64,000 nucleotides of DNA from Candidatus Woesearchaeota archaeon (GTDB lineage Archaea; Nanobdellota; Nanobdellia; SCGC-AAA011-G17; GW2011-AR17): positions 180,757 through 244,756 of the forward strand of contig CAYPLB010000001.1 in NCBI GenBank assembly GCA_964411565.1, given 5' to 3'. Position 1 is the stretch's first letter. Each line of letters starts with the position of its first letter. Under the pieces are notes generated by a model. The model was given only the letters and a program-made list of their open reading frames with translations, was not told the DNA's origin and did no database searches. This document shows positions 8,749 through 55,901 of this stretch, in pieces. A program made the translations under genes and the position numbers.

Positions 8749-9132
8749 TTATCTTCTTCTCCTTCTCCATTTGAAAGAGTATAAATAAATTCCAATGATT
8801 AAGATTATGAAAAATGCATATAAGTAATATCTAACATTACTTGTTTCTTCTTCAACTTCAGCTGCTAAAGATTTTGGAGCTTCGTTTGCTATCTGACAAA
8901 TTCCTTCTTCACATCCATTTACACATGGAAGAATTGTGTATGAAGCAACTTCATCAATGCTACAATAATATTCTTTTATGTTGTCACCTTCACAAGAATC
9001 TTGGTAAGTTTCACCATCAGAAGTTACACCACCAAAGTCATATTTGTTTTTACCATTGTCTGAATCAAAGCACTCAGCAGTAACTAGACCTGAAAGTAAA
9101 ATTAACATTATTAGTGCTGTAATTATTCGCAT
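8749..9132 (-). CDS. small membrane-anchored Cys-rich surface protein
   Basis: Signal peptide, CxDSD.G...DSC...EYYC...C..GC..G.C module, C-terminal TM and basic tail. Confidence 0.8.
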   Translation of the reverse strand: MRIITALIMLILLSGLVTAECFDSDNGKNKYDFGGVTSDGETYQDSCEGDNIKEYYCSIDEVASYTILPCVNGCEEGICQIANEAPKSLAAEVEEETSNVRYYLYAFFIILIIGIYLYSFKWRRRRR

Positions 9133-9269: not shown

Positions 9270-12200
9270 ATGATAATTAAAAGAGGTTTGTTGATTTTTG
9301 TAGTTCTATTTTTAGTAATTCCATTTGTTTTTGCTGCTAATGGATGTTGTGGAGAAACTGTTTCAGAAAATACTTGTGTTTATACTTCTGAAGAAAATTG
9401 TGATACTCCTTCATACTTTAATGAAAATGCACAATGTGAAGATACTAGTTTTTGTGGTGTTGGGTGTTGTGTTAAACCAGATGGTTTGTGTTCTGAAGGT
9501 GCTGGTGAATATTCTTGTGATGTTGTTGATGGTGAATGGACTGATGGAAGTTGTGATTCTTTAGATGCTTGTGAAAAAGTTTGTTGTGTTTATGGGGATT
9601 TTTATACATATAATACTGAAGGATATTGTGAAAATCTTTATGCACAATATGGAGGAGATATAGATTATTATGATGTGAACTCTGAAACCGAATGTTATGA
9701 AATGGAAAGACAAAGTAATCAAGGATGTTGTGTTACTGAAGATGGATGTAGTTATGTTAGTTTAGGTGAATGTGAAGTTGATGAAATTGATATGAGTACT
9801 GGATATGGTTTTTTTGAAAATGATTATTGTCATTATGTTGCAGGGGATTTGGAAGAAGGTGGATATGAAGCAGCAGCAATGTGTGATTGTGAATTAGATG
9901 AGGACTATTATGTTTGTGATAGTAGTGGACTGTATGTTTTAGAAGTTGATACTTGTGGTAATCAAGGAGATATTGTTGAAGAATGTAATTATCCAAGTTC
10001 AATTTGTTCAGAAAGTTCTGGTAAAGCAGAATGTATCTCAACAAGTTGTACAGAAACTTTTAGCTTTCCTGAAGATTCTGAATTTTCTAGATTTAATACT
10101 TACAAAGTTTATTATCAAGGTTTTGAATCTGAATTTGATTTTAAAGAAATTCAATTAGGGCAATCAAGAGAAAATGGAGAAACTTGGTGTATTTATGAAA
10201 GTCCAGTTGGAGGTTTTGCTGATAGAGTTGGAAGTAGACATTATGAGGCAATGTGTTATAATGGTGAAGAAATAATTAATCCATGTGGAGAAGCAAAAGA
10301 TAGAGATCAAGTTTGTGTTTCAAAATATGATAAGACTAATGAAGAATTTATTGGAGGTTGTGTTGATAATAATTATGATGACTACTATGGTGAAGATGCT
10401 ATAGTTGAAGGAATGGATACTTTAATTTATGTAGAACCTGTTAGTGAACCAGTTGAATTTGGAGCTGTTGAAGGAGAAGAAGGTGAAGTTGAAGAAGTTG
10501 ATGTTGATGATGAAGATTATGATCCTTTGTATTATCCTTATGGAGTTTCAACTGTTGCAACTTCTGGAAGTGACTACTGTTCTTTAGGAACTTTAGAATG
10601 TAATCTTTGGTATGCTGATAGATATGAAAGTTCTCCAGATACAGGTTGGGAACTTTATGGGAATGGAGTTTGTTTGAAACCTCATTTTGCTTTGACAGCA
10701 GCAGATTATTGTTCAGCAAGAGGAGATTGTGGTTTAGATTTAAATGTTATTGGAAAAAATGGTGGGACTAGTGGTTTTCAAATAACAAATTCAAGAGATA
10801 AAGTTGGTGATGCTTATGTAGGTTATGGATTTTTTGATAGAGATGATATTGGTTTTTTTACTTCTCCATTTATTAGTGATGTTTGGAGTGCAGTTTCTTC
10901 ATTATTGTTTGATAATGTACTTTTTGTTGGTGGTTGGGATGTTAACACAGGTGAATGGGATTGGATTTGGGAAAATCAAGTAGAAGTTTTTTATAATATT
11001 TTTGATATGTTTTTACCAGATCAGAATTCTGCTTCTACAACTCTTGTAAATTTGTTAATAAATTCAGAAATTGATGGTTCAGAAATTTTTGATGAAAAAG
11101 TTACTGATGAAAATTGTTTTGATATTGATGAAGCTCATGAAGGTGCATTTATGGAGCCAGATAAATGGGATTATTATTATCCAGTGTTTTTACAAGCTTT
11201 AGATTATAATACTTTTCAAAGAGGAAGTTTAGAAATAAATGATTTATATTGTAGGGAATACACTGCAGATAGTATTGAAGGATTATATTATTTAAGTAAA
11301 CAAGATTTTATGGGAGATTTGTTTGCAAGAAATTATATGGTAGGAAGATTCTTTTCATTTTATGATTTAGTTTTACACTCAACTTCATTTTTGCCAAGTG
11401 AAACTGAGTATGATGAAGTTTATGATATTATAGAAAGTGAAATTTGTAGAGATTCTGGACAAAGGTTTAGATCTTTATCTAGAGGTTTAGGTTTTAATAT
11501 TGAAACTGGTGAAGGAAATGCAAATTCTGAAATGCCTCAAAATGTTAGAGATTTAAATGTAGATTTATCTGTAGATAAAAATTATGGAGAACTAAATTTA
11601 GATCTATACACAAACTTTAGAAGTATTAAACCATGGTATGTTAGTAGTCAACATTTAGAATCTTCTTTGGAAGGAATATATAAAGTAGGTATGCCATTGA
11701 AGTCTTTAACATTTTATACAGGACAAATTGGTTGGTGTGGTGATAATAGTGAATTTGAAGCTGCTGGTGATGAAGGAAAAGAAATGGTTACAAAATCTTT
11801 TACCTGTGGTGCTTGGGAGCCTCCGGCTGGTGGTGATGATTGTCATCTTTGTGATACTTTAATGTCAGAGGGTGGTTTGGTTTATGATAAAGGTGATAAA
11901 GTTTATACTGGAACATTATGTAGTGAAGCTAGATGTGAAAGTTTAGGAGCAACTTGTGCATATATTGAAGAAAATAGAGAAGTTGCATTATATGATGAGT
12001 CAAGACCAAGTTGTATTGATGGAGGAGATTGTAGTCTTATACAGGCTCCAATTAGAAGTGCTGATTTAGAATTGTTAGATGAGCAAGGTTTTATGTATGA
12101 AGAAAGTGAGAATGGAACTAGATTAACAGATCTACCTGTAATGGAAACTTTTAAGTTTGCTTTGGAAGTTGATCCTGTTTCAAATTGTAAGTTTGTAAGT

Positions 12201-13292
12201 GAAGATGATCTTCCAGAAGATTGGACAACAAATCCTGATGCTGTAACTTATGAATCTTTAAGTTCAACAGTGCCATTAAGTGGTTATACAAATTATCATA
12301 ATTTTACTTGGCATGTAGATGAAGCAAATTATGTACAAAGGTTTTATGTGAGTTGTAAAAATTATTGTGGTGAAGAAAATTTAGATTTCTATTTAGTAGA
12401 ATTTGAAACTGGAGATGGTGAGAATATTAGTCCGCCAGTAATACAAACAACTTATCCTTTGGATGGAGAGTTAATACAATCTGATAGTGAAGAAGTTGAG
12501 TTGAAACTTTATTTGAATGAATATGCAGATTGTAGATATTCTGAGAATGCTTATACTGATTATGATTTAATGGAAAATGATTTTTTGTATTGTGATAATT
12601 CGTATAGTGGAGAAAGTTCAGGTTTAGGTTATCCAATTTGTTCAACTAATATTGATCTAAGTAATGGCTCTGCAAATCTTTATTTATTGTGTAAGGATAC
12701 AGAAGGGAATGCAATGACAGAACCACAATCTTGGGGAGTTTCAAAAACTGAGCCTTTGTTAATTTCACAAACAGCTCCATCAGGAGATTTATATTATAGT
12801 GAAGTGACTATGCAAATTTATACTACAAATGGAGGAGATAGTGGGAATTCTATTTGTTCGTTTAAAGAAGAAGGAAGTTCATATTATGTTGACATGGAAA
12901 ATTCTTATACTAATTATCATGAGCAAATTTTTACAGATTTAGCAGAAGGTAGTTATAGTTATTCAGTAAGTTGTGAAGATGAAGTTGGTAATGTTGTTGA
13001 AGGAACTGTGGAGTTTAATGTTGTTGTAGATAGAAGTGCATCAGAGATTAGTGGTTTGTATTATTTAGGAACTACATTATATATTATTACAGATGAAGCT
13101 GCAACTTGTCAATATGATGATGAAAGTTTTTCATATGGTTCTGGAACTGAAACTGCTGGTTCTGGAAGTACAGATCATACTATTGCTGTAGAAGATGGAG
13201 GGAATTATTATATTAATTGTGAAGATGAATTTGGTAATCAAATGGATGAAGTTGTGATCAATTTAGATTATTTTGTGTCTAATTCTATATAG
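9270..13292 (+). CDS. large secreted Cys-rich protein, paralog 1
   Basis: Signal peptide; N-terminal CC repeats; GETWC/VGSRHY, GDCG and CxAW.PP motifs shared with 14974 and 19259; C-terminal Ig-like repeats. Confidence 0.85.
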   Translation: MIIKRGLLIFVVLFLVIPFVFAANGCCGETVSENTCVYTSEENCDTPSYFNENAQCEDTSFCGVGCCVKPDGLCSEGAGEYSCDVVDGEWTDGSCDSLDACEKVCCVYGDFYTYNTEGYCENLYAQYGGDIDYYDVNSETECYEMERQSNQGCCVTEDGCSYVSLGECEVDEIDMSTGYGFFENDYCHYVAGDLEEGGYEAAAMCDCELDEDYYVCDSSGLYVLEVDTCGNQGDIVEECNYPSSICSESSGKAECISTSCTETFSFPEDSEFSRFNTYKVYYQGFESEFDFKEIQLGQSRENGETWCIYESPVGGFADRVGSRHYEAMCYNGEEIINPCGEAKDRDQVCVSKYDKTNEEFIGGCVDNNYDDYYGEDAIVEGMDTLIYVEPVSEPVEFGAVEGEEGEVEEVDVDDEDYDPLYYPYGVSTVATSGSDYCSLGTLECNLWYADRYESSPDTGWELYGNGVCLKPHFALTAADYCSARGDCGLDLNVIGKNGGTSGFQITNSRDKVGDAYVGYGFFDRDDIGFFTSPFISDVWSAVSSLLFDNVLFVGGWDVNTGEWDWIWENQVEVFYNIFDMFLPDQNSASTTLVNLLINSEIDGSEIFDEKVTDENCFDIDEAHEGAFMEPDKWDYYYPVFLQALDYNTFQRGSLEINDLYCREYTADSIEGLYYLSKQDFMGDLFARNYMVGRFFSFYDLVLHSTSFLPSETEYDEVYDIIESEICRDSGQRFRSLSRGLGFNIETGEGNANSEMPQNVRDLNVDLSVDKNYGELNLDLYTNFRSIKPWYVSSQHLESSLEGIYKVGMPLKSLTFYTGQIGWCGDNSEFEAAGDEGKEMVTKSFTCGAWEPPAGGDDCHLCDTLMSEGGLVYDKGDKVYTGTLCSEARCESLGATCAYIEENREVALYDESRPSCIDGGDCSLIQAPIRSADLELLDEQGFMYEESENGTRLTDLPVMETFKFALEVDPVSNCKFVSEDDLPEDWTTNPDAVTYESLSSTVPLSGYTNYHNFTWHVDEANYVQRFYVSCKNYCGEENLDFYLVEFETGDGENISPPVIQTTYPLDGELIQSDSEEVELKLYLNEYADCRYSENAYTDYDLMENDFLYCDNSYSGESSGLGYPICSTNIDLSNGSANLYLLCKDTEGNAMTEPQSWGVSKTEPLLISQTAPSGDLYYSEVTMQIYTTNGGDSGNSICSFKEEGSSYYVDMENSYTNYHEQIFTDLAEGSYSYSVSCEDEVGNVVEGTVEFNVVVDRSASEISGLYYLGTTLYIITDEAATCQYDDESFSYGSGTETAGSGSTDHTIAVEDGGNYYINCEDEFGNQMDEVVINLDYFVSNSI

Positions 13293-13439
13293 AGAACTTA
13301 CAATATTTTTTTAAGTTACTTAAATTAACTTATGAATATTCTCTAAGAGCTTCTAACTAATCAGAATATTATGTCGCTGTGAAGGTGAAAAGGTTTAAAC
13401 TATAATAATCTTTATAAATGTTTATTCTTTTAAGAGATT

Positions 13440-13898
13440 ATGGGGATTGTTGGAATTGAAAGATATGATGGTTCTCTTGACAATTTGTATCAAGGTTTAG
13501 GTATTCAAAAGGGATCTATTACAAGACAGTTAGACGAAGTTGATCCAAATACAAAAGTTCAAGAAGTTCTATCAAGAAATGAGATTTACCAAATTGAAAA
13601 AGCAATTAGTTTCAAGTTTTCTGATCTTCCAATGCCTATTGGATGGTTAAAACAAAAATCAGTTATTGCTGATTTTGCTCATTATGGAATTAAATATGTA
13701 GGGGAGTGTATGCCATATGATCAAAAAGTGGTATCAAAGTTAGCAGCAAAGTATGGTGCAGATAGATTGCTTCCTGTATCAGAATTTACTCTTAGCGGAA
13801 TAACAAAAATGAATGGAAGACCTTATCCAAATCCAAAAAGATCCACAATATTTTTTCAGTTACCTAAGTCAATTAATGAATATCCTTTGGGAGTTTAA
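13440..13898 (+). CDS. hypothetical protein
   Basis: 152 aa ORF with TATA box at 13411. Confidence 0.65.
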   Translation: MGIVGIERYDGSLDNLYQGLGIQKGSITRQLDEVDPNTKVQEVLSRNEIYQIEKAISFKFSDLPMPIGWLKQKSVIADFAHYGIKYVGECMPYDQKVVSKLAAKYGADRLLPVSEFTLSGITKMNGRPYPNPKRSTIFFQLPKSINEYPLGV

Positions 13899-14034
13899 AA
13901 ATAGAAAGTTTTAGGACTTGGTAGGATCTGATTGATAAATAATGAAATTTTCTAAGAATCAATTAATTTAGTATTAAATTCAATATAATTCTAAATGGAA
14001 AGCTTTTTAAACAATTGTTTATTATTTTAAACAT

Positions 14035-14559
14035 ATGTTTAATGAATTGGACATTTTAAAAATATTTTTTGAAGATCCTAATAGAGAGTTTAATGTTAGG
14101 GAAGCAGCAAGAGTTTTGAAAATTGCTCCAGCAACAGCTAGTAAGTTTTTGAAAAAGTTTGATAAAAAACGAATTCTTATTGGTAGAAAAGAAAGAATGT
14201 TGTTATTATACAAAGCAAATTTAGATAATGAATTATATAGAGATCTAAAAGTTTTTTATAATTTAAGAAAAATAAAAAGTTCTGGTTTTATTGAAGCTAT
14301 TGATAAATTTTATTTGAAACCCACAATTATATTTTTTGGATCTGCTTCTAAAGGATATGATGTTAAAGAAAGTGATTTTGATTTTATTATTATTAGTGAA
14401 AAAAAGAAAGATTTTCCTCATCAAAAGAAATTTGAAAAAAAGTTAATGAAAAATTTTCAGATTTTTGTTGTAAAGTCTATTAAAGGTTTAAGAAATGAAC
14501 ATCTTATGAATAATGTATTGAATGGAATTGTTATTCAAGGGAGGTTTGAATGGACTTAG
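14035..14559 (+). CDS. wHTH plus minimal nucleotidyltransferase (MNT) antitoxin-like protein
   Basis: N-terminal HTH (VREAARVLKIAPATAS) and FGS..KG.....SDFD motif. Confidence 0.85.
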   Translation: MFNELDILKIFFEDPNREFNVREAARVLKIAPATASKFLKKFDKKRILIGRKERMLLLYKANLDNELYRDLKVFYNLRKIKSSGFIEAIDKFYLKPTIIFFGSASKGYDVKESDFDFIIISEKKKDFPHQKKFEKKLMKNFQIFVVKSIKGLRNEHLMNNVLNGIVIQGRFEWT

Positions 14560-14969
14560 CTGATTGTGAAAAAAAAGGGTTTGTAAGAAAAGTAAGTAAA
14601 GATGAAGGTTTGGTAAAATCTTTAATTGAAATGTCGAAATTGAAAGAAAAAGTTGTTAAAGAGTCAAAGGTTAATGAAGAAAATATTTCTGTTTATGTTT
14701 CTTTAGCTTATGATTCTTTGAAAGAAATATTAGATTGTGTTTGTTTGATGAACGGGTATAAAGTAATGTCACATATTTGTGTTGGTGTTGTTTTGAAAAA
14801 TTTGTTTGAAGATTTTAATTTTGAAGATTTTGATAGAATGAGGTGGATTCGAAATAGTATCAATTATTATGGAGAACGAGTTGAATTTGATCAGGGAATG
14901 GAATTAATAAAAAATATTTTTAAAATGAAAAAGGAACTGTCTGAGAAGTTTCTTTTTAAAGATAAATAA
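14550..14969 (+). CDS. HEPN-domain toxin-like protein
   Basis: Overlaps the MNT gene; GYKV.SH and RNSINY (Rx4Y variant of the HEPN motif). Confidence 0.7.
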   Translation: MDLADCEKKGFVRKVSKDEGLVKSLIEMSKLKEKVVKESKVNEENISVYVSLAYDSLKEILDCVCLMNGYKVMSHICVGVVLKNLFEDFNFEDFDRMRWIRNSINYYGERVEFDQGMELIKNIFKMKKELSEKFLFKDK

Positions 14970-14973
14970 GGAA

Positions 14974-17900
14974 ATGTATTTAAATAAAATAAACATGAAA
15001 GAAAATATGCAAAAGAGGTTTGTGAAAGAGAAAGCTTTGCTTATGATATTTCTTATAGTAACTTTATCTTTTACAATTGCAAATTTTGAAGAAGTAAAAG
15101 CAGATGGAAATGTTTGTTGTGAATATACTAGTAGTGGAGATACTTGTGTTTATACTGATGAAGATAATTGTGATGGAGGAAATGCAGTAAGTACAAGTTG
15201 TGAACAAACTTCTTATTGTGAAGTTGGTGTTTGTGTTTCTAGTGAAGGTAAGTGTTCTGATGGGGTTGCAAAAACAACCTGTGAAAGTTTAGATTATGAA
15301 TGGCATGAAGGTTCAAGTTTGGATTATGATGTTTGTCAAAAAGAATGTTGTGTAATTGCTGAGTATCAGTGTTCTTATACAACAGAAGATCATTGTGGAT
15401 ATTTAATTGAAGATTTAGAAGATATAGAATTAGATTGGAGAGATGTAGATTCTGAAGCTGATTGTTCTAATATTTGTAGAAGTAGTGATAAAGGTTGTTG
15501 TGTAACAAGTGACTCTTGTAGTTATACAACTTATGGATTATGTGAAGATCCTGATATAGATTTGAATACAGGTACAGGTTTTTATGAAGAAGAATATTGT
15601 GCTGATTTAGGTGCATGTGCTTGTGTTTCACATGATACAAAAAGATGTGTAGATGAAGATGTTTATTGGTTTGATTCTTGTGGTAATCAAGAAGATGTAG
15701 CTGAGGATTGTGATTATCTTTCAAGCACTTGGTGTAATTATGATGAAGAAGAAGATGATTATATTTGTGATGATATAAATTGTGATGAAACTTTTGATGG
15801 AGTTTATACTATAGATGGTGTAGAAACTCAAAGAAACCCTCATGATGAAAGAATTGGTGGAGAAAGAGAACATGGAGAAAGTTGGTGTTTATATGAAAGC
15901 CCAGCTGGAGGATGGTTTGATAGGCCTGGTTCTCAACATTATAGAAGTTTTTGTTATTTTGGTGAGGAAATTATTGAACCTTGTGTAGATTATAGAGAAA
16001 GTGTTTGTATACAATATCCTTATACAACAACAAATAATTATACTTTAATGAATCCTTTTGAAGAATGGGGTTTAACTTTAGGGGATGATTATTCTAGTAC
16101 TATTTCTGAAGCTGGTTCAGCATGTATAGATAATGGTATATATCAAAATTTGATTAATGCAAATGTAACAACAGTTCCAAAAGGTAGTAGTTTGTCAAGT
16201 GAAAGTACCGATGAGGAAGGTACTTGTTCAAGTGGTAATCAGGAATGTCTTGTAACTTTTGGAAAAGATTCTAGATTTGGAGAGTGGCATTGTTATGATA
16301 ATTGTTATTGTTTAACTCCAGAATGGGCAGATCAAGCTGCAGGTTTTTGTGCAACTCAAGGAGATTGTGGAGCAAAATATAATTTAGCTGAAGAGTTTGT
16401 AGGAGATGGATTTTATATTACAAAGTCTCATGGTTATGCTGGTGGGTTTGATGATGATTCTGGAGAAGTTGAACATAATAAAACTTTGATCGGTTATGAT
16501 TTGAATTGTGTAGAAACTTGGTCAGTGCCTGGAGAAAATTCTGATCCTGAATGTACAAAATATTGTAAAGATGGAGAATCTGAAAATTGTTATTTTATTG
16601 ATGAAATGAGAGAAGAAGTTCAATTAGAATTGAAAGATGAGTATGGAGTATATGGTGGCTTAGTAGGTTTTTCACAGAGTATGGGTGAATATATAGCAAC
16701 TGAGCAAAGTCCAGGTTTGTCAACAGTTGGTGCTATTGCTATTGGAGCAGGTGCAGGTTTAGTTGCTGGTTTGGCTTTTTCAGCAGTAGCTGCAACAGTT
16801 GCTGTTGCTGCAGCTGGAGGAGGTTCAGTTTTAGTTGGAACTGGAACACTTTTTGCTGCGGGTATTTCCAATTTGATTCCTTATGTTGCTGGAGTTGGTT
16901 CTGTTCTTGGTCCAATTGGATGGGTTGTTGCTGGGGTTATTATTGTAATTGCTGTTATTGTAACATTAATTGTTGGTGGAGGTGAAGCGATTGAGATTAC
17001 AGTTTCTTCACATTGTGAAGCTTGGCAAGCACCAAGTGGTTTAGATTATTGTGAACTTTGTGATGTTGCTGTTTCAGATGGTGGTTTGGCTATTGATAAT
17101 AGTGAAGGAGATATTTTAAGAGGTTGGGAATGTACTGAGTATAAATGTAATAGTTTAGGTCAAACTTGTGAATATATTGAAGAAAATGTTGGAACTGAAA
17201 GAGCAATGTGTATTAGTGTTGCTACTAATGATGTGAACCATCCTGTAATTGAAGATGCTTATTTGTTAGGTAATTATAAGAATTTAGATGTGGAGTTTGT
17301 TAAAGATGATTATTTGAAAGTTAATGAAAAAATTGCACCTTATACTTTTTTTGAATTTGGAATTGAATTAGATGAAGTTGGTCAATGTAAAATTGAATAT
17401 GAAAGTTTACATGAGACTTATGAAGAAATGGATTTGTATTTTCCTGATTCATATTATGATTATGTTCATAATCAAAGTTGGATTTTAACTCCTAATGAGG
17501 TTTATAATTTTTACGTAAGGTGTCAAGATCATAATGCTAATTATAATATAGATGCATTTGTAATACAAGTTGAAACAACTGGAGGAGATGATATTACTCC
17601 ACCAAGTATAGATGCAACAAGTGTAAATAATGGAGCTTTTATTGCAAGTGGAGTTAATGAAACTGATGTAAGTTTATTTATGGACGAACCTGCAAATTGT
17701 AAGTGGTCGTTTAGTGATGCTGATTATAGTCTAATGGAATATTATATGAGTTGTTCTGGAATACCAGAAACTGCAAGTTCATTATTTGAAAATGAATGTA
17801 CTGCATTGTTGAATGTTTCATATGGAAATAATTATTATTTCTTTGCTTGTGAAGATGCAGCAGGAAATGCAAACACAGAAAATCATGCTTTTACTTTAGT

Positions 17901-18390
17901 AGGGACAGATCCTTTAGGTTTAGATTATGCTTCACCAAATGGAACTATATATTATGATTATACAACAATAAGTGCAGGAACTTCTGGAGGTGCTTATGGA
18001 GATGGAAAAGCTGTTTGTTCATATGATGGTATTGAATTTTTTACAACAAATACTTCAGTACATAGTCAAAATTTAGAAGATCTAGAAGCTGGAGATTATA
18101 ATTATAATATAGTTTGTAGTGATATTGCTGGTAATTCAAATTCAACAGAAATTAGTTTTACTATTGCTGTTGATAGTGATGCACCTGAATTAAGTGGTTT
18201 ATATTTAATTGATACAACTTTGTATTATGAATTAAATGAAGATGCTACATGTGAGTATTATTTTGAAGAATTTGATTATGGTGAAGGAACAAGTGTTGCA
18301 GGTTCATTTACATTAACGGAATTAAGTTCATATTATTTAATTTGTGAAGATGTATTTGGTAATCAAGGGGAGTTTGAAATTAGAGTTTAA
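14974..18390 (+). CDS. large secreted Cys-rich protein, paralog 2, with internal hydrophobic hairpin
   Basis: Same scaffold as paralogs 1 and 3; ~85 aa Gly/Ala/Val/Ile segment at ~16726-16983; true start may be 14995 or 15007. Confidence 0.85.
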   Translation: MYLNKINMKENMQKRFVKEKALLMIFLIVTLSFTIANFEEVKADGNVCCEYTSSGDTCVYTDEDNCDGGNAVSTSCEQTSYCEVGVCVSSEGKCSDGVAKTTCESLDYEWHEGSSLDYDVCQKECCVIAEYQCSYTTEDHCGYLIEDLEDIELDWRDVDSEADCSNICRSSDKGCCVTSDSCSYTTYGLCEDPDIDLNTGTGFYEEEYCADLGACACVSHDTKRCVDEDVYWFDSCGNQEDVAEDCDYLSSTWCNYDEEEDDYICDDINCDETFDGVYTIDGVETQRNPHDERIGGEREHGESWCLYESPAGGWFDRPGSQHYRSFCYFGEEIIEPCVDYRESVCIQYPYTTTNNYTLMNPFEEWGLTLGDDYSSTISEAGSACIDNGIYQNLINANVTTVPKGSSLSSESTDEEGTCSSGNQECLVTFGKDSRFGEWHCYDNCYCLTPEWADQAAGFCATQGDCGAKYNLAEEFVGDGFYITKSHGYAGGFDDDSGEVEHNKTLIGYDLNCVETWSVPGENSDPECTKYCKDGESENCYFIDEMREEVQLELKDEYGVYGGLVGFSQSMGEYIATEQSPGLSTVGAIAIGAGAGLVAGLAFSAVAATVAVAAAGGGSVLVGTGTLFAAGISNLIPYVAGVGSVLGPIGWVVAGVIIVIAVIVTLIVGGGEAIEITVSSHCEAWQAPSGLDYCELCDVAVSDGGLAIDNSEGDILRGWECTEYKCNSLGQTCEYIEENVGTERAMCISVATNDVNHPVIEDAYLLGNYKNLDVEFVKDDYLKVNEKIAPYTFFEFGIELDEVGQCKIEYESLHETYEEMDLYFPDSYYDYVHNQSWILTPNEVYNFYVRCQDHNANYNIDAFVIQVETTGGDDITPPSIDATSVNNGAFIASGVNETDVSLFMDEPANCKWSFSDADYSLMEYYMSCSGIPETASSLFENECTALLNVSYGNNYYFFACEDAAGNANTENHAFTLVGTDPLGLDYASPNGTIYYDYTTISAGTSGGAYGDGKAVCSYDGIEFFTTNTSVHSQNLEDLEAGDYNYNIVCSDIAGNSNSTEISFTIAVDSDAPELSGLYLIDTTLYYELNEDATCEYYFEEFDYGEGTSVAGSFTLTELSSYYLICEDVFGNQGEFEIRV

Positions 18391-18429
18391 CAAAAGCTTT
18401 ATAAATTTATAAGGGAGATATAAGGAGTA

Positions 18430-19191
18430 ATGAGAAAAAGAGGACAGTTAACTTTGTTTATAATTTTAGGTATTGTATTAATTGTGTTAATTGCTTTATA
18501 TTTTGTAGCAGTTAAAACTGAAATTATTCCACCATTGTTAACTCCTAGTGATGCTAATTCTGAAATGAATGAAATTGAAGAACATATTGAAGATTGTTTA
18601 AAAGCTGTTGGAATGAATTATCTTTATATCTTAGGACAGCAAGGTGGTTATTTGAATCCTGGTGAAGATACATATAGAATGTTTAATGATTCTATGATTA
18701 GTTATCTTTGTTGGAATCAAGAGAATAGTCCAACTTGTACAAATAGATTACTTACACTAAATAAAATGGAAGAACAGTTAGAAGATGCTGTTGATGATGC
18801 TTTGCAAACTTGTATTAATGTTTATGATTATAGTAAAGATGTTGAAGCTAATGATGATTGGGAATTAGATGTTACAATAAATTATTTTAATGTAGATTTT
18901 GATTTAAATTATCCTGTGTCTGTAGATAAAGGTGAAGATGATAGTGCGTCTGAAGATGAGTTTGGTTATGAAGCTGATGTGGCTCTTGGAGAAATTTATG
19001 AAGTTAGTCAAGATATTGTTAACCAACATGCTTCACTTGGAGACTTTGATCAGTTGTTGTATATGCTTTCAAAATTAAGTCGGTATACAATCTATAAAAA
19101 TAGACCTTATCCAGATGTTGTTTATCAAGTTAAGTTAAGAGAGAAAGCTTATGTGTTCCAGTTTGGAATTCAAGGTGAAGAAAATGTGTAA
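18430..19191 (+). CDS. class III signal peptide (pilin-like) protein
   Basis: MRKRG/QLTLFIILGIVL: basic residues, G/Q, then a hydrophobic helix. Confidence 0.8.
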   Translation: MRKRGQLTLFIILGIVLIVLIALYFVAVKTEIIPPLLTPSDANSEMNEIEEHIEDCLKAVGMNYLYILGQQGGYLNPGEDTYRMFNDSMISYLCWNQENSPTCTNRLLTLNKMEEQLEDAVDDALQTCINVYDYSKDVEANDDWELDVTINYFNVDFDLNYPVSVDKGEDDSASEDEFGYEADVALGEIYEVSQDIVNQHASLGDFDQLLYMLSKLSRYTIYKNRPYPDVVYQVKLREKAYVFQFGIQGEENV

Positions 19192-19258
19192 TATTATTTC
19201 TTATATACAAACTTTTATAAATCTATAAGTAATTAATTAATTAACGAGGGGTATTAAT

Positions 19259-22200
19259 TTGAAAAGAGGTTACTTTGTAATAGTTAGTGTAATAGTATTT
19301 ATGTTAATTTTAATTAGTGCAGTTAGTGCAATTGATTCTTGTTGTGAGTTAACAAATGATGGAGATTGGTGTGTTTATACTGATAGTGAAAATTGTGATT
19401 CAAGATATAAATCAACTTCTACAAGCTGTGAACAAACTTCTTATTGTGCCGTAGGTACTTGTTACTCCTCAGATACTGGTTCTTGTTATGAAAATACTCC
19501 TCGATCAACTTGTGAAGCAGAAGAAGGTACTACTTGGACAGATGTTGATGCAGATGAATTAGCACAATGTCAGAAAGGTTGTTGTACCATTGCAGATCAA
19601 GCTTTTTTTGTAACAGAAGTTAAGTGTAAAAGTGTAGGTTCACAATATGAAGATGCTGGAGTAGATTTTGATTCGAGTATTGAAACAGAATATGCTTGTT
19701 TGGAAAGTGTGAAAAATAAAAATTTAGGCTGTTGTGTTACAGATGAAGAATATACTTTTGTAACAAGAGAAGAATGTAGTGCATCAGAAGGTGAAGTTGG
19801 AACAAATTTTACAACAACAGGATTTCATGAAGATATGTTGTGTTCAAATGATTTGTTAAGTTCTGATTGTGCAAAACAACATCACACAGGATGTTATGAA
19901 GGAAAAGTTTATTGGTATGACTCTTGTGGTAATAGAGAAAATATTTATAGTTCTGATGAAAGAGGTTCGTATAATGATGGTTATATTTTAGATGAAATAG
20001 ATTCTTGTGAAGCTGATGGTCCACTTGATACAGATTGTGGAAATTGTGATTATGCAGATGGAATGATTTGTGGAACTGATACAGGTAAAGTTATGTCTGT
20101 TGGAGATTATACTTGTGTAGATTTGAATTGTTATGATACTTATGAAAATGATGCAAGTCCTTTGTCAGGTTATGATAAGTTGAATGGAGAAAGTTGGTGT
20201 GTTTTTGATTCAAGACCAGGAGAAGGTTTGGATACAGTTGGAAGTAGACACTATAGACATATTTGTATTAATGGTCAAGAAGTTGTAGAAAGTTGTGCAG
20301 ATTTTAGAGAAGAAATTTGTATCAGTGGAGTTTTGAATGAAGAAGTTTTAGGAACAATGGAAGCTTTAGGTTTAAGTGGAGATAAGGATTATGTAGAAGC
20401 TTCTTGTAGAGATAATAGACCTGAAACTTGTGTTGATTGTAACTCTGATGAATTAAGTTGGACACAAAAAACAGATTGTTGTTTAGATGAAGATTTAAGA
20501 GATTGTCATTATCTTCTCCCCCAGCTAACCAATATTGAAGAAGGTGATAGTGTTAGTAATGGGACTTGTGTTCCTCAAGTACCTCCAGGTTTACAATTTT
20601 GGAGTGAAGATGGTACTGAAGGAGATGCTTCAACATCTGAAGTTTGTAATGCTGCTTCAAGTGAATGTAAAGTTACTTATAGAATTGGTGGTTGGAAAAA
20701 AGTTTTAGGTGGGAAAACTAAACCAGATAATTGGGAATTAATTGAAGAAGGGCCTGATGGTTGTGCAAGTAAGGAATGGCTGATTAATCAAAATACTTTA
20801 TGTAGAACCTTAGGAGATTGTGGTGCTTATTTTAATTTTGCTGGAGAAGCAGGTATGGATGGTTTGGCAACAACACTTTATGATGAAGAATTTTTCTTTG
20901 AAGTTGAAGAATTGGAAGTAAGTGATTTAGGTGATACTGAATATTTGATGAATGTTAATGAATTAGATGAAGGAAAGTTTTGGGGTTTTAATAGTCCTCA
21001 GTTGTTAAAAAATCCTGCGACATATGTTGCAGCAGCTAGTTTTTTAGTCGGTGGAATTGCAGGTGTGTCTGCTTGTGATAATGCTGAAAAAGCTAATGAA
21101 GCAGTTGATGAAGCTGAGAAAGAATATAAGTCTGTAACTAGTGAAGATAATAAAGATGATAGTGATGATGGTGCTGATGGAGTTGATAAAGCTCCTGAAG
21201 TAATTTATTATGCTGGTGGAGGAGATTCACAAAGGACTGTTGCACAAGGGCAGAAGGCTTTAGATACTTTTAAAGGAATAAGTGAATTTAGTGATGGAGC
21301 TAAATGTTTTGTAGGTTCTGCTATTCCAATTTTAGGTTTATTTAAGAAAAATGAAGTTGATTATAGTGAGAAAGCTCAAAGTAAATTTAGAGAGACTGGA
21401 ACTGATGATATATTAGAATATGCAAGTTTAGCAAGTAAATATGCAGGAAAAGCTAAGACTGCTGGGACAGTTTCAAAAGTTGCAAATGTTGTAACAATAG
21501 TTGCTGTTGCTTATATTGCAGTTGAGTATGGTTTGGATAATGAAACGACAATAACTTATAATGTAGATTGTAATTTATGGCAAGCTCCAAATGGTGGAGA
21601 TAATTGTGAATTATGTAATAGTGGAGATACTCCTTGTTCAGAATATAAATGTAGATCTTTAGGAGCTTCATGTGATTTAGTTAATGTTGGTACTACAAAT
21701 GAAACTTGTGTTTCACAATTTGTAAATGATGTAAACTCTCCAGTTATTAGTGAACAAGAAGATTTGTTTGGAGATGAATATACTTTGAGAGTTTCAGAAG
21801 ATGAAAGTAATAAAGGTTTTGAAATAAATGAAAAAATACCTGCGTTTACAAATGTACAATTAGGTTTGACAACAGATGAACCTGCACAGTGTAAATATTC
21901 CTCAGATCCAAGTATGGAATTTGATAGTATGAATAGTTATTTTGGTTCAGAATTATATCTCTATAATCATAGTTTAATATTTTCTTTAGGAGATGAAGTT
22001 ACAGATGAAGAAATTATGGCATTGACTGAAGGAATTTATACTCTTTATGTAAGATGTTCAGATGCAAATGGTAATGCAAATGAAAGAGATTATTTTATTA
22101 GATTTACAGTCGATGATACTCCTGATTTAACTCCTCCAGAAATAATTTTTAGTTCCTTAGAATCTGGATCTTATATTCCATATGATGTTGAAGAAACAAC

Positions 22201-22987
22201 ATTTAGTATTTTTACTAATGAACCTGCAAGTTGTATGTGGAATAATAATGATACTAGTTATGAATTTATGAATGGAGAAATGGATTGTGCTAGTTCAGGA
22301 TTTGAACAAAGTTCAGAATATTATGGAACTTATGAATGTTCAACAACTTTAACAGGGGTTGGAGAAAATGAAATTAATAGATTCTATTTTAGATGTGCAG
22401 ACCAATCAGGAAATATTAATGATGATAGTTATGAGTTTACAACAAAACAAACTGAAGATCCTTTAGAAATTGTTGAAGTTGGACCTGAAGGAACTGTTGG
22501 ACAAGAAATTACTTTGGAAGTTGAAACTAATGATGGTGCAGAGAATGGTGAAGCAACTTGTAAATTTTATTCTGAAGATGTATCTTATGATTCAATGATT
22601 GAGTTTGTTGATACTAATGGAAGTGATCATAGTCAAAGTCTAGAATTAATTGAAGGAGAATATGAATATTATTTTGGATGTAGGGATATTGCAGGTAACT
22701 TAGCTTATAATAGTACAAGCTTTACTGTCGAGGTAGATAATAAAGGACCAGTTATAGAAGTTATTTATATAGATACTGCGTACTCTGTATTGTATATAGA
22801 AATGGATGAAGATTCAACTTGTGAATATGCAAGTGAAGTGTTTACTTATGGTGAAGGATCTTTAATGACAGGTGAAGAAAAAACTGGACATGAAGCAAGT
22901 TTAGAAAGTTTGTATTTCTATATTATTTGTGAAGATTTAATTGGTAATCAAGGAACTTATGAAGTAGATTTAACAGCATGGGTTTAG
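19259..22987 (+). CDS. large secreted Cys-rich protein, paralog 3
   Basis: Same scaffold (CCELT..GDWCVYT, GESWC, VGSRHYR, GDCG, CNLWQAP); TTG start with TATA box and GAGGGG upstream. Confidence 0.85.
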   Translation: MKRGYFVIVSVIVFMLILISAVSAIDSCCELTNDGDWCVYTDSENCDSRYKSTSTSCEQTSYCAVGTCYSSDTGSCYENTPRSTCEAEEGTTWTDVDADELAQCQKGCCTIADQAFFVTEVKCKSVGSQYEDAGVDFDSSIETEYACLESVKNKNLGCCVTDEEYTFVTREECSASEGEVGTNFTTTGFHEDMLCSNDLLSSDCAKQHHTGCYEGKVYWYDSCGNRENIYSSDERGSYNDGYILDEIDSCEADGPLDTDCGNCDYADGMICGTDTGKVMSVGDYTCVDLNCYDTYENDASPLSGYDKLNGESWCVFDSRPGEGLDTVGSRHYRHICINGQEVVESCADFREEICISGVLNEEVLGTMEALGLSGDKDYVEASCRDNRPETCVDCNSDELSWTQKTDCCLDEDLRDCHYLLPQLTNIEEGDSVSNGTCVPQVPPGLQFWSEDGTEGDASTSEVCNAASSECKVTYRIGGWKKVLGGKTKPDNWELIEEGPDGCASKEWLINQNTLCRTLGDCGAYFNFAGEAGMDGLATTLYDEEFFFEVEELEVSDLGDTEYLMNVNELDEGKFWGFNSPQLLKNPATYVAAASFLVGGIAGVSACDNAEKANEAVDEAEKEYKSVTSEDNKDDSDDGADGVDKAPEVIYYAGGGDSQRTVAQGQKALDTFKGISEFSDGAKCFVGSAIPILGLFKKNEVDYSEKAQSKFRETGTDDILEYASLASKYAGKAKTAGTVSKVANVVTIVAVAYIAVEYGLDNETTITYNVDCNLWQAPNGGDNCELCNSGDTPCSEYKCRSLGASCDLVNVGTTNETCVSQFVNDVNSPVISEQEDLFGDEYTLRVSEDESNKGFEINEKIPAFTNVQLGLTTDEPAQCKYSSDPSMEFDSMNSYFGSELYLYNHSLIFSLGDEVTDEEIMALTEGIYTLYVRCSDANGNANERDYFIRFTVDDTPDLTPPEIIFSSLESGSYIPYDVEETTFSIFTNEPASCMWNNNDTSYEFMNGEMDCASSGFEQSSEYYGTYECSTTLTGVGENEINRFYFRCADQSGNINDDSYEFTTKQTEDPLEIVEVGPEGTVGQEITLEVETNDGAENGEATCKFYSEDVSYDSMIEFVDTNGSDHSQSLELIEGEYEYYFGCRDIAGNLAYNSTSFTVEVDNKGPVIEVIYIDTAYSVLYIEMDEDSTCEYASEVFTYGEGSLMTGEEKTGHEASLESLYFYIICEDLIGNQGTYEVDLTAWV

Positions 22988-28438: not shown

Positions 28439-28476
28439 GAGTTAATTTTATAAAGTTTCTTTGGTTGTTTATATTT

Positions 28477-28971
28477 ATGAAAAGAGGTCAGATTCTAGGT
28501 GTTCCTTTAGTGTTATTGTTTGCATTAATTGTTGGTGCTTTAATTTTAGCTTATGGAGCAAAAGTTGCAATTGATTTGGTTAATGAAGCAGATTATATTG
28601 ATTTTTTGGATAGTATGTCAGATTTAGAAAATAATATACAAACATTTTCTCATTATGATGAAGGTTCTTCAAAAGTTTATGATATAGATTTACCTACTGA
28701 TGTTGAAGCAGTTTGTTTTTATAATGATGGGAAGGATTTTGATTGTACTCTTGATGGTGAAATCTGTGATGAAATTTTAGAAGGGACTTTAGATCTATTG
28801 GTTGAGAGTAATTTTAATGTCTATGTTTATCCAAATAATGCTTTTGATCAGACAAGATTAAATATAGAAGATTTTGAAACTGAAGCAGGAAATCCTGAGT
28901 GTATATCAAATGGACATTCATTATTAATAACTGCTTACAGTGATTATGTAGGATTAACTTATTATGAATAA
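28477..28971 (+). CDS. class III signal peptide (pilin-like) protein
   Basis: MKRG/QILGVPLVLLFALIVG; TATA box 22 nt upstream supports the 28477 start. Confidence 0.78.
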   Translation: MKRGQILGVPLVLLFALIVGALILAYGAKVAIDLVNEADYIDFLDSMSDLENNIQTFSHYDEGSSKVYDIDLPTDVEAVCFYNDGKDFDCTLDGEICDEILEGTLDLLVESNFNVYVYPNNAFDQTRLNIEDFETEAGNPECISNGHSLLITAYSDYVGLTYYE

Positions 28972-29962
28972 AAAAGCACAAATGTCCTCACCATTTAGTT
29001 ATATTTTTGCTTTAATAATTGGGGGAATAGTGTTTATGTTTTTAATTGGTTTTGCTTACAAATTTATTGCTTTGTCTGGTGCATTAGGAGCAGCTGAAAC
29101 TGTTTCAGCTTTGAATGATGAGTTTGCAGCTTTTTCTGTTTCTGAGTCAGCAGAGAAAGTAATTAATTATGGAAGTAGTTTTGATTTTACAGTCTTTGAA
29201 GGAGAGTTAAGAAGTGGTGGGCAAAGTAAAAGTATAGATCATATTATTTTTTCTCCTTATGAAATTCAAGGGAAAGATTTGTATGCAGCAACGCGTTCTT
29301 TAGAATTGCCATATAGAGTTGGAAATTTATTTTATTTGTCAGATGGAAGTGTTGTTTATATTTTAGTTTATGATTCAAATTCTGAGGAAGTAGTTGAAGA
29401 ATTAATTGATTCTTATTCTGCAATTCCTAGTAATTTTCCTAGAGAAGCTTTTTCAATTACACAAGTTTCTTCTAACATAGGAGAACTTAGTCAGTTAACA
29501 GCATCATATAGTCAAGTTAGGTTTGTATTCTTTACATCTTATGATAATGTTCTTGATGATATCCAAAGTAATTTTGAAAATTATGAAATTTTAAAAGTTG
29601 AATCTTCTGATGAAGAATATCTTTATGGACAAGTTGAATATTCTGATGGTGAAGAAGTTGTTTATTTAGGATATCCTTTGTTGATAGGTGCAATTATTTC
29701 TTATGGTGCTACAGGTTATGAATATAATTTTGATTTAGTTATGGAAAAGTTGTCGTCAATAACTAATGTTTATTATGATAAATCTAAATTTGTTTCTGCA
29801 AGAAAACCAGAGTGTGATTATAATTCTATCAAAACAACTTTGAATAATTATAAATCTTTAACAAATCAAGATGAAGTTTCATATAGTAGTTATGCTACAA
29901 AAATTGAACAAGTTGAAAATGCTAATGATGGTTTAGGAGGTGATTGTCCTGAAGTTTTCTAA
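28964..29962 (+). CDS. class III signal peptide (pilin-like) protein
   Basis: MNKKA/QMSSPFSYIFALIIG. Confidence 0.78.
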   Translation: MNKKAQMSSPFSYIFALIIGGIVFMFLIGFAYKFIALSGALGAAETVSALNDEFAAFSVSESAEKVINYGSSFDFTVFEGELRSGGQSKSIDHIIFSPYEIQGKDLYAATRSLELPYRVGNLFYLSDGSVVYILVYDSNSEEVVEELIDSYSAIPSNFPREAFSITQVSSNIGELSQLTASYSQVRFVFFTSYDNVLDDIQSNFENYEILKVESSDEEYLYGQVEYSDGEEVVYLGYPLLIGAIISYGATGYEYNFDLVMEKLSSITNVYYDKSKFVSARKPECDYNSIKTTLNNYKSLTNQDEVSYSSYATKIEQVENANDGLGGDCPEVF

Positions 29963-30452
29963 AGGTCAAATACAAATGATGGAAACACTGATGGTTGCAG
30001 TAGTTTTTATGGTTGTATTAATTGTAGCTTTAGCATTTTATTTTAAGTTCTCATTAGAAAGTATGGAAGAAAGTGGACAAGAAGCTTGTTTAGTTTCAAA
30101 TACTGTGTTGTTGGCATCAGTAAGTTCAATGGCAGAGATACAATGTAGTATCGATGGGAAAACTGAAAATTGTATTGATACTTCAAAATTAATTGTATTT
30201 GATCCAGGTAGAACTTATGGAAGTATGTTTACAACAAACTGTAACCAAAGAGTTTATTTTGAACAAGTATATCCAGAACCGGAAAATGGAACTTGTGATC
30301 AAAATAATTATCCTGATTGTACACAATTTGTGTTTTATGATCCTGATGTAAGTTATAGCTCAACAATCAAAATATCTACACCAACAAGTTTATATTTTCC
30401 GTTAACAGAGGAATATAAATTTGGAAAGTTAGTGATAGAGGTGCTTTTATGA
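29940..30452 (+). CDS. class III signal peptide (pilin-like) protein
   Basis: SKG/QIQMMETLMVAVVF followed by a Cys-containing globular domain. Confidence 0.75.
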   Translation: MIVLKFSKGQIQMMETLMVAVVFMVVLIVALAFYFKFSLESMEESGQEACLVSNTVLLASVSSMAEIQCSIDGKTENCIDTSKLIVFDPGRTYGSMFTTNCNQRVYFEQVYPEPENGTCDQNNYPDCTQFVFYDPDVSYSSTIKISTPTSLYFPLTEEYKFGKLVIEVLL

Positions 30453-30871
30453 AAAAAGGACAAATGGAAATAATAGGTTTTATGGTAATTATTCTTTTGC
30501 TATTGTTTAGTTTAATCTTTTACTTTAAGTTTGCATCAAATGATTCAAGTGATTTATTGCAAGAGGCTGAAGAAAATTTAGAAGTTTCAAATTTAATTGA
30601 TGCAATAAAAATGTATACAGTATGTGAAGATACTCAAATGAATGATGTGATTAAATCATGTATAGATGGTGGGAATGAATGTGATGAAGATTCTTGTGGA
30701 ATTGTTGAAAGAGAAGTCCAACAAATTGTTTCTTTAAATGGTTGGGAGAATGATTCATATATGTTTTATATAGGAGAAGTATTATATTCTCAAGGGACTT
30801 GTAAAGGTAATACTTTTGTAGATGATTACATAACTAATGGTGAAACAGTAAGATTAGTTTATTGTTACTGA
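30449..30871 (+). CDS. class III signal peptide (pilin-like) protein
   Basis: MKKG/QMEIIGFMVIILLL. Confidence 0.8.
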   Translation: MKKGQMEIIGFMVIILLLLFSLIFYFKFASNDSSDLLQEAEENLEVSNLIDAIKMYTVCEDTQMNDVIKSCIDGGNECDEDSCGIVEREVQQIVSLNGWENDSYMFYIGEVLYSQGTCKGNTFVDDYITNGETVRLVYCY

Positions 30872-31050: not shown

Positions 31051-31145
31051 AAGGTTTATAAGGAGTTTTTATTTGTTTATGGTTAACTGTGTTTATACTT
31101 CCTAGTTTAGGAAGAGGGAGTAGTTTATTTTTTACACAGGAGGTG
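31051..31145 (+). promoter_or_regulatory. S-layer promoter, 5' UTR hairpin and Shine-Dalgarno site
   Basis: AAGGTTTATAA at 31051; hairpin CTTCCTA-gtt-TAGGAAG at 31098-31114; AGGAGGTG at 31138-31145. Confidence 0.65.
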
Positions 31146-31154
31146 TTGTATAAC

Positions 31155-55856: not shown

Positions 55857-55901
55857 TTTTGAGTAAGCTTTATATATTTTATAATATAGTTATTGTTTAA
55901 G

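Follow-up and report, generated by a model that had tools for sequence, protein, structure and literature searches.

An unnamed family of cysteine-rich, putative envelope proteins in a Woesearchaeales-type order of archaea, with a fast-evolving seam between two predicted exported units

The window analysed here, a stretch of 64,000 nucleotides (nt) from the genome of a Candidatus Woesearchaeota archaeon (assembly GCA_964411565.1, contig CAYPLB010000001.1, positions 180,757 to 244,756), contains three genes for large, cysteine-rich proteins, P0001, P0002 and P0003, which we call paralogs A, B and C (Table 1, where lengths are given in amino acids, aa). In the alignment, P0002 matches P0001 at 35% identity and P0003 does so at 29%, and the likeness of the three proteins is beyond chance, because pairwise BLAST comparison gives E-values down to 1e-75. 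In P0001 a signal peptide, the sole membrane segment of the protein, is followed by an N-terminal unit (N-unit), a non-hydrophobic central domain and a C-terminal unit (C-unit) with an array of immunoglobulin-like (Ig-like) domains. The N-unit holds CC..C.YT modules and a core with the motifs DSCGN, GESWC, GSRHY and GDCG, and the C-unit a core with CxxWxxP, C.LC and C..LG..C together with four Ig-like domains; the strict form of the module, CC...C.YT, is matched two, three and one times in P0001, P0002 and P0003, respectively. The N-termini of A and C start with KRG and a hydrophobic stretch, yet they end in an Ala-x-Ala-like site for signal peptidase I.

An earlier reading of the same DNA, made without database searches (the sequence-only reading), had described a conserved scaffold around a central insert that could not be aligned between the three proteins, with Ig-like repeats at the end and no C-terminal anchor, and this description stands. 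The motifs D[ST]CGN, GE[ST]WC, GS[RQ]HY, GDCG, Cx[AL]W[EQ][AP]P.G, C.LC, C..LG..C and a final C.D..GNQ occur once each per protein in the order then given, and the insert bounds, between GDCG and CxxW, agree exactly with those in Table 1. The Ig array, which makes up the last third of the protein, is backed by the Pfam family Big_13 in P0003 (30.8 bits for a cut-off of 27; P0001 and P0002 reach 18.9 and 21.5 bits, both below it) and by the predicted fold of P0002, whose residues ~750-1138 resemble tandem Ig and fibronectin type III (FN3) structures (VIA Z 8.0-9.6). A hydropathy scan finds no C-terminal hydrophobic segment in P0001, P0002 or P0003, and neither BLAST nor profile-profile comparison detects a likeness of the A insert to those of the clades B1 and C defined below. 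Two features go beyond the earlier description: the P0002 insert contains a hydrophobic block and the P0003 insert two hydrophobic segments, and comparison within the genus shows that variability in A and B sets in at about residue 340, upstream of GDCG.

Table 1. Features of the three genes and of the surface-type genes beside them, in window coordinates. Identities and ratios of nonsynonymous to synonymous substitution rates (dN/dS) are from the comparison with a genome of the same genus, G002.
Feature	Position	Strand	Description
Paralog A (P0001)	9270..13292	+	1340 aa, 62 Cys
A hypervariable zone	10260..11879	+	aa ~331-870; identity 0.19-0.64, dN/dS 0.30-1.74
A insert	10734..11804	+	aa 489-845, 357 aa; aromatic-rich, 4 Cys
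Paralog B (P0002)	14974..18390	+	1138 aa, 62 Cys; predicted internal hydrophobic hairpin
B hypervariable zone	15964..17043	+	aa ~331-690; identity 0.27-0.48, dN/dS 0.66-1.99
B insert	16372..17013	+	aa 467-680, 214 aa; ~110 aa of exported linker with 4 Cys, then hydrophobic block
B hydrophobic block	16711..17010	+	aa 580-679; uncharged, Gly/Ala/Val/Ile, ends just before CEAWQAP
B substitution cluster	16789..16860	+	8 substitutions, 6 amino-acid changes, P0002 codons 606-629
Pilin-like gene	18430..19191	+	253 aa; MRKRGQ, then hydrophobic stretch; between B and C
Paralog C (P0003)	19259..22987	+	1242 aa, 62 Cys; TTG start
C insert	20825..21568	+	aa 523-770, 248 aa
C first hydrophobic segment	21017..21079	+	aa 587-607; Gly/Ala-rich, Kyte-Doolittle 1.60
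C most variable part	21059..21418	+	aa ~601-720; charged loop between the two hydrophobic segments
C second hydrophobic segment	21461..21538	+	aa 735-760; Kyte-Doolittle 1.83, ends ~10 aa before CNLWQAP
Four pilin-like genes	28465..30871	+	168, 332, 170 and 140 aa; K/R-G/A-Q motif, then hydrophobic N-terminus
S-layer-like gene	31089..33503	+	804 aa; Pfam S_layer_C 53 bits (cut-off 23.9); closes the cluster

The proteins belong to no named family, as the sequence-only reading had also suspected, and on this point Pfam, NCBIfam, a profile search of the PDB and database labels agree. A word-indexed search with P0002 returned 350 proteins at E <= 0.001, and among the 120 of these relatives listed none has a functional name, all being labelled 'hypothetical'. 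Pfam recognises only Big_13 in the three proteins and NCBIfam no family, no model of either collection matches the N- or C-core, the best hit of the sequence-profile search of the PDB has an E-value of 0.25 (none below 0.1), and the N-unit retrieved only unnamed archaeal clusters from the ESM Atlas (0.88-0.89). Full-text literature searches, which did not extend to supplements, returned no publication on the family, which is absent from Pfam and NCBIfam naming and is to this extent undescribed. It is present in 37 of 41 related genomes, including 28 of the 29 that are at least 90% complete, usually as 2-4 tandem copies; the window's own genome has these three copies only. Across a sample of the phylum, 98 of 151 genomes match the family profile at 1e-10, with full-length matches in the window's order and in one further family, f43, and with matches to the two cores, or to Ig-like repeats only, in other orders. 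Paralog C gives the top BLAST scores of the three types across the examined genomes of the order, and the members of the A clade come from six genomes, all in the window's taxonomic family. We conclude that this is an unnamed family of cysteine-rich, probable envelope proteins, widespread in a Woesearchaeales-type order of DPANN archaea.

Comparison of the members indicates that A, B and C are old paralogs, each with orthologs in other genomes. The sequences closest to the window's A, B and C copies are orthologs elsewhere (85%, 59% and 87% scaffold identity), not the neighbouring copies. A scaffold tree (IQ-TREE, 862 columns, insert columns removed) of 46 full-length members, drawn from the window and from 20 compared loci, recovers clades A (6 rows, support 100/100), B1 (7 rows, 100/97) and C (18 rows, 100/99), with A and B1 as sisters (13 rows, 100/99), and FastTree and a quick IQ-TREE run give agreeing clades. 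The boundary motifs are nearly invariant in this set, GDCG being found in 45 of the 46 members (GNCG in the other) and C-x-x-W in 44 (of the other two, one shows Y and one has an alignment gap there), while the insert between them ranges from 133 to 399 aa, and the inserts follow their scaffolds. In insert-versus-insert BLAST (E <= 1e-3), matches within clades join 7 of 15 A-A pairs, 15 of 21 B1-B1 pairs, 24 of 105 pairs in a further group, B2, and 36 of 153 C-C pairs, and those across clades number 0/42 for A-B1, 0/90 for A-B2, 0/108 for A-C, 0/126 for B1-C, 3/105 for B1-B2 and 2/270 for B2-C, which amounts to 5 of 741 pairs and none with clade A. Profile-profile comparison of the A insert with those of B1, B2 or C gives a probability of 0.1%, and B1-B2 and C-B2 inserts are alike only over the first 23-40 columns past GDCG. 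In trees built separately from the N-halves and from the C-halves, A, B1 and C come out with the fewest possible label changes. Because nearly all matches stay within scaffold clades and the half-trees agree, the inserts appear to have been inherited with their own scaffolds and not exchanged; where the sequence-only reading had proposed a swappable cassette, the insert and scaffold histories are congruent at the level of clades.

That the scaffold consists of two units is suggested by natural variants. In four genomes (G070, locus L045; G140, L047; G120, L044; G098, L046) the gene is split just past GDCG, and the split N-halves have no anchor, while the C-halves have their own signal peptide and keep hydrophobic helices before CxxW. 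In G070 the N-half of 625 aa ends with TAA 30 aa past GDCG, and the next codon is the ATG of an 815-aa C-half in which signal peptide, Cys-rich and Pro/Ser/Thr-rich stretch, hydrophobic helices and CxxW follow one another; G140 and G098 have a similar arrangement with a pilin-like gene ahead and with two open reading frames that lie in different frames and share 20-32 nt, and G120 has a split pair plus a fused copy. Since the split C-halves bear their own signal peptide, the frame would be made of two units, each capable of export without the other, and since they keep the hydrophobic helices, these probably belong with the C-unit. In five relatives from other orders, which are 1123-1196 aa long and have 44-47 Cys, the units are joined by a Cys-free seam of just 99-109 aa with a top hydropathy window of 0.75-1.24 and no membrane segment. 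Each protein could thus be viewed as an N-unit plus a C-unit, both exported, and the 'insert' as the seam between them rather than a payload.

The nature of the seam differs among paralogs, as judged by 19-residue Kyte-Doolittle windows over 44 of the 46 inserts (two clade-C members were left out). All 22 B-clade members have a top window of 1.99-3.39 just before CxxW, formed by 40-100 uncharged residues (Kyte-Doolittle 2.0-3.4), and the block of ~100 residues in P0002 reaches 3.02. The pattern extends to the 141 database relatives that have both boundary motifs: 109 have a window of at least 1.6, and 92 of these at least 2.0; in 103 of the 109 this window lies within about 63 aa of CxxW, and seven of the 141 have a top window below 1.0. 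An AlphaFold2 model of P0002 from a 63-row alignment (mean predicted local distance difference test score, pLDDT, 80.1; predicted template modelling score 0.60; scaffold 80-93) places low-confidence helices at residues 582-611 and 646-667 and four beta-rich domains from ~750. Sequence and model together thus show the B seam as a predicted, strongly hydrophobic helical hairpin directly before CxxW. Such a hairpin would span the cell's own membrane twice or four times and leave both disulfide-rich halves outside, so that B may be tethered from its middle.

The C seam would consist of two weaker, Gly/Ala-rich hydrophobic helices that bracket a variable loop. The 16 C members scored have top windows of 1.25-3.17, half of them (8/16) at or above 1.6, and in some C seams the number of hydrophobic stretches rises to three or four. 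In the window copy the loop contains 17 Lys and Arg residues for 2 in the stretch that precedes it, which fits a cytoplasmic loop, although 26 Asp and Glu residues make it very acidic. In relatives the loop has other content: a LysM domain in the C-type insert loop of G013 (L021:13635-14831; 33.1 bits, cut-off 20.9, E 5e-8), 10, 12 and 14 Cys residues in G020, G013 and G024, and in G024 two 6-Cys repeats. The C loop thus seems to accept inserted modules, and this much survives of the idea of a variable payload.

The A seam is of a third kind. The top 19-residue window of the A insert is 1.34, all six clade-A members lie between 0.66 and 1.38, and nine clade-A inserts with recognisable bounds lie between -0.08 and 1.34. 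An exhaustive comparison of the A insert with 1.84 billion representatives found a fragment of itself and one family member of 1300 aa (E 7e-6), a word-indexed search retained none of 2528 candidates at E <= 0.001, and an ESM Atlas query with the A insert gave no usable match. A wider search brought in about a dozen clade-A proteins whose inserts are chained by significant matches and have motifs such as SIKPW and GLGxN in common. The A insert therefore appears to be a clade-specific domain of roughly 230-360 aa without a membrane segment, and not a mobile module, because it is recognisable only inside clade A. AlphaFold2 applied to P0001 residues 440-900 with a 15-row clade-A alignment gave an unusable model (pLDDT 38.8). 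Paralog A is probably a duplicate of the B lineage in which the hairpin was replaced by this domain, and with no anchor of its own it would be either secreted or held by partners.

The seam is also where the proteins change fastest. Across the 46 members it has the lowest column conservation, which bears out the variable centre of the sequence-only reading. Against G002, in windows of 60 codons, the flanks of A have identities of 0.75-0.93 (dN/dS 0.07-0.46), those of B 0.83-0.95 (0.07-0.30) and those of C 0.70-0.95 (0.05-0.60); the values for the hypervariable zones of A and B are in Table 1, and the centre of C has 0.40-0.53 (0.41-0.72), all central dN/dS estimates being rough owing to alignment gaps. 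In A and B the variable zone begins about 130-150 residues upstream of GDCG. All of eight further ortholog pairs show a dip in identity, to 4-38%, at or near the seam. The synonymous rate (dS) of the B seam, 0.49-0.84 for 0.29-0.93 in the flanks, is only moderately raised, which argues against import of a distant allele. The seam is therefore probably the part of the protein under the weakest constraint, and for this reason the part that diverges fastest.

Variation is also visible among strains. Marine and seawater metagenomes of two studies contain DNA that is nearly identical to the window, and the substitution cluster in B (Table 1) comprises all the differences between the window and seawater contigs of the second study that are otherwise identical to it. 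Its six amino-acid changes are conservative (A/T, A/G, A/V, G/A, S/A and L/I), and two alleles of the P0002 seam occur side by side in seawater metagenomes, the X5 and X7 contigs having the eight substitutions and the X6 contig matching the window. Contig joints and loose ends (80% likeness, sides of 20-55 letters) were taken to belong to other organisms or paralogs. The protein P0006 was considered as a mosaic, since it is 60% identical to P0002 over residues 1-568 and 84% over residues 627-1138, and was rejected as a recombinant because both flanks are ~90% identical and the difference is confined to the hypervariable centre.

Taken together, our results are best accounted for by a reading that we consider probable: old paralogs, each made of two exported units, are joined by a fast-evolving seam that is inherited with its scaffold and that in B forms a predicted hairpin anchor. 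In B the seam would be the predicted hairpin, in A a soluble domain and in distant orders nothing more than a linker. For a topology class of mid-chain membrane hairpins, defined by an even number of membrane-spanning helices between two exported, disulfide-rich parts, B would be a candidate on its strong hydrophobic block and predicted helices, C is borderline in hydropathy and A has no such segment. Several observations weigh against this reading. Hydropathy is a crude predictor of membrane topology, and in the P0002 model residues 578-646, which overlap the hairpin helices, have a pLDDT below 50. Fold searches with that model (Foldseek against the PDB, VIA-align against a wide set and Foldseek against viral models) filled their lists with Ig and FN3 matches at ~750-1138, so that the N-unit, the cores and the seam were barely covered. 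Half of the scored C members (8/16) fall below 1.6, so the hairpin is a weak proposal for C, and since LysM and Cys-rich repeats are typical of exported protein, their presence in relatives would place the C loop outside the cell. We therefore describe the C seam as a module-tolerant region for which the evidence points both to a loop inside and to a loop outside the cell. Finally, dN/dS windows above 1 in A and B could mean diversifying selection on a functional, exposed region instead of relaxed constraint.

Among the alternatives, the one that fares best, although we think it unlikely, is that the protein is a polyprotein precursor in which the first helix stops transfer of the N-unit, the last acts as an internal signal peptide and signal peptidase then cuts the chain into two subunits. 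The natural split forms, with a C-half that has its own signal peptide, and the small residues 'GGGE' after the last P0002 helix are what such a precursor would be expected to show. There is, however, no evidence of cleavage, the seam of A and of the distant-order relatives is not hydrophobic, and the split C-halves combine a signal peptide with further hydrophobic helices before CxxW. Because they have both, we keep the hairpin as a putative anchor rather than a mere signal.

A host-directed function of the centre seems to us quite improbable. The centre would then be the distal working end of the protein, with Gly/Ala-rich helices that enter or fuse with the host membrane and with variable loops and domains that recognise the host and are under diversifying selection. 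The dN/dS values of 1.0-2.0 in some windows of A and B, the moderate hydrophobicity and Gly-rich composition of the C segments, the glycan-binding LysM module in one C loop and the small genome of about 1.0 Mb, in organisms described as dependent on host contact, all point in this direction. The B-type helices, however, resemble ordinary stop-transfer spans integrated by the cell's own translocon, relaxed constraint explains dN/dS near 1 equally well, and the PDB and viral fold searches revealed no likeness to a fusogen in lists that were filled by Ig-like matches and barely covered the N-unit.

We hold it very improbable that the centre is a cassette, a payload or specificity domain exchanged by recombination between conserved frames, as the sequence-only reading had supposed. 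Its non-alignable nature between paralogs, the insert length of 133-399 aa among 46 members, the drop in identity within one genus with dN/dS windows of at least 1, the strain-level substitution cluster in the B seam and the extra modules of C loops (LysM in 1 of 18, Cys-rich repeats in three) would be consistent with such exchange. Against it stand the rarity of insert matches across clades (5/741, none with A), the congruent trees of the two halves and the moderate dS of the B seam, unlike that of an imported distant allele. The A insert, moreover, matches only itself and one family member among 1.84 billion representatives, and DNA repeats among the three genes in the window correspond to scaffold motifs only and include no donor copy of an insert. 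Nor does the content of the inserts recall polymorphic toxins, to which the family had been likened: 45 of the 46 have no Pfam domain above cut-off and none has a toxin domain, the single hit being the LysM in a relative's C copy. The supposed payload of B is mainly the predicted membrane hairpin, and that of C contains the two weaker hydrophobic helices. Cassette-swapping thus appears largely refuted at clade level; of the fixed frame with a variable centre, what stands is a paralog-specific, fast-evolving middle, and what falls is cassette-like exchange or a payload. As for mutagenesis of the centre by a diversity-generating retroelement, an element common in DPANN archaea to which local hypervariability and a tight substitution cluster might be ascribed, its probability is close to nil, and it is excluded as far as tested, because the genome (100% complete by marker genes) has no RVT_1 reverse transcriptase, the window has no template-like repeat of any insert and the clustered substitutions, with 1 of 8 at adenine and 1 of 8 at thymine, are not adenine-specific.

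The window has a G+C content of about 30% and comes from a genome of 1.0 Mb in 19 contigs. Genes for PCNA, for subunit L of RNA polymerase and for a TFS-type zinc ribbon mark it as archaeal, and relatives of the proteins, where a source is named, are assigned to Nanoarchaeota or Woesearchaeota, which points to a DPANN archaeon. Around the family genes lie genes of a surface type (Table 1). The K/R-G/A-Q motif followed by a hydrophobic stretch is the pattern of archaeal (class-III) prepilins, and it occurs in the four downstream pilin-like proteins, whose genes start at 28465, 28964, 29940 and 30449 and of which the 170-aa protein has a weak prepilin-type NCBIfam match (E 0.0028). The 253-aa pilin-like protein between B and C, which shows the pattern too, has 18 homologs in the compared loci, in the same position, and [A]-B(-B')-pilin-like-C-pilin-like-pilin-like is the arrangement that these loci have in common; in G002 a pilin-like gene directly follows C. 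Genes for a prepilin peptidase and for T2SSE-type ATPases lie in other parts of the genome.

Other genes of the region can be listed more briefly. Between paralog C and the four pilin-like genes, P0004 (23042-28438, plus strand, 1798 aa) combines a signal peptide with weak matches to beta-propellers (BamB/PQQ-like) and Ig-like domains, a Cys-rich DUF7107-like stretch, three tandem repeats of ~264 nt (26259-26979), a single membrane helix at the C-terminal end and a tail rich in Lys. Between A and B, a nucleotidyltransferase (14035-14559, plus strand; Polbeta/NTP_transf_2, with a weak MntA-like match) overlaps a 139-aa partner (14550-14969, plus strand) in a toxin-antitoxin-like pair, homologs of which adjoin family genes in G002, G011, G024 and G025. 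It is preceded, after A, by an open reading frame of 152 aa (13440-13898, plus strand) that has no Pfam or NCBIfam match and no homolog in the 20 compared loci. Upstream of A and divergent from it lies a gene for a secreted 127-aa protein (8749-9132, minus strand), found in the same place in G002, G011 and G020 (50-81% identity). Farther away, a secreted Cys- and Glu-rich protein (55893-57386, plus strand) contains three 114-nt tandem repeats (56883-57180), and the DNA that encodes its signal peptide has 74% identity to the corresponding stretch of the P0001 gene (repeat family D16). The GC skew is strongly positive (0.2-0.5) up to about 50 kb and falls to about zero or below in the bins of 50-52 kb and 58-60 kb, which have genes on the minus strand.

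The means by which DPANN archaea attach to other cells are described as poorly understood, and organisms with such small genomes are said to depend on cell contact with hosts. A surface or host-contact role of the family is suggested by gene context only. Its wide spread, which in more distant forms extends to further orders of the class, its setting among pilin-like genes and an S-layer gene and the lack of a named family make it a concrete candidate for part of the cell-surface or host-contact apparatus of these archaea. It is conceivable, though we would not expect it, that A, B and C make up a single heteromeric apparatus on the surface of these episymbiotic archaea, mounted along with the pilin-like proteins. 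In it B would provide the anchor, and the fast-evolving centres of A, a soluble domain, and of C, Gly-rich helices whose loops take up modules such as LysM, would be host-facing, possibly membrane-active specificity elements, positively selected to track host surfaces.

The family shares some traits with known systems. Like Rhs- and CDI (contact-dependent inhibition)-type polymorphic toxins, it combines a conserved frame with a sharply bounded, non-alignable region; unlike them, its variable part is internal, includes no toxin domain and is not exchanged between scaffolds, and the genes that follow are pilin-like genes or the nucleotidyltransferase pair, with no evident immunity genes. The family also resembles those viral glycoprotein precursors in which an internal hydrophobic hairpin links two ectodomains, and it has split versions whose downstream unit bears a signal peptide; the likeness seen is one of layout, and the family is cellular, archaeal and vertically inherited. 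With Big_13-type Ig-array adhesins it has in common a C-terminal array of four domains predicted to be Ig/FN3-like, with Big_13 above its cut-off in P0003 only, but not a terminal cell-wall or membrane anchor or a recognisable adhesive tip domain. The adhesins of archaeal type IV pili offer a further comparison. For large proteins with signal peptides in archaeal pilus loci, a role as adhesins or minor pilins has been put forward (Makarova et al. 2016, PMC4858521), and, in passages of that account where the term 'DPANN' does not occur, these proteins are, like the present family, large and exported, often have many conserved Cys residues, lie among pilin-like genes and sometimes adjoin S-layer-like genes, their function being likewise deduced from context. 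Pfam finds no DUF2341 or PilY-like domain in the family, which differs from these proteins in its family-specific cores and in its anchor, predicted, where present, to be a hairpin in the middle of the chain.

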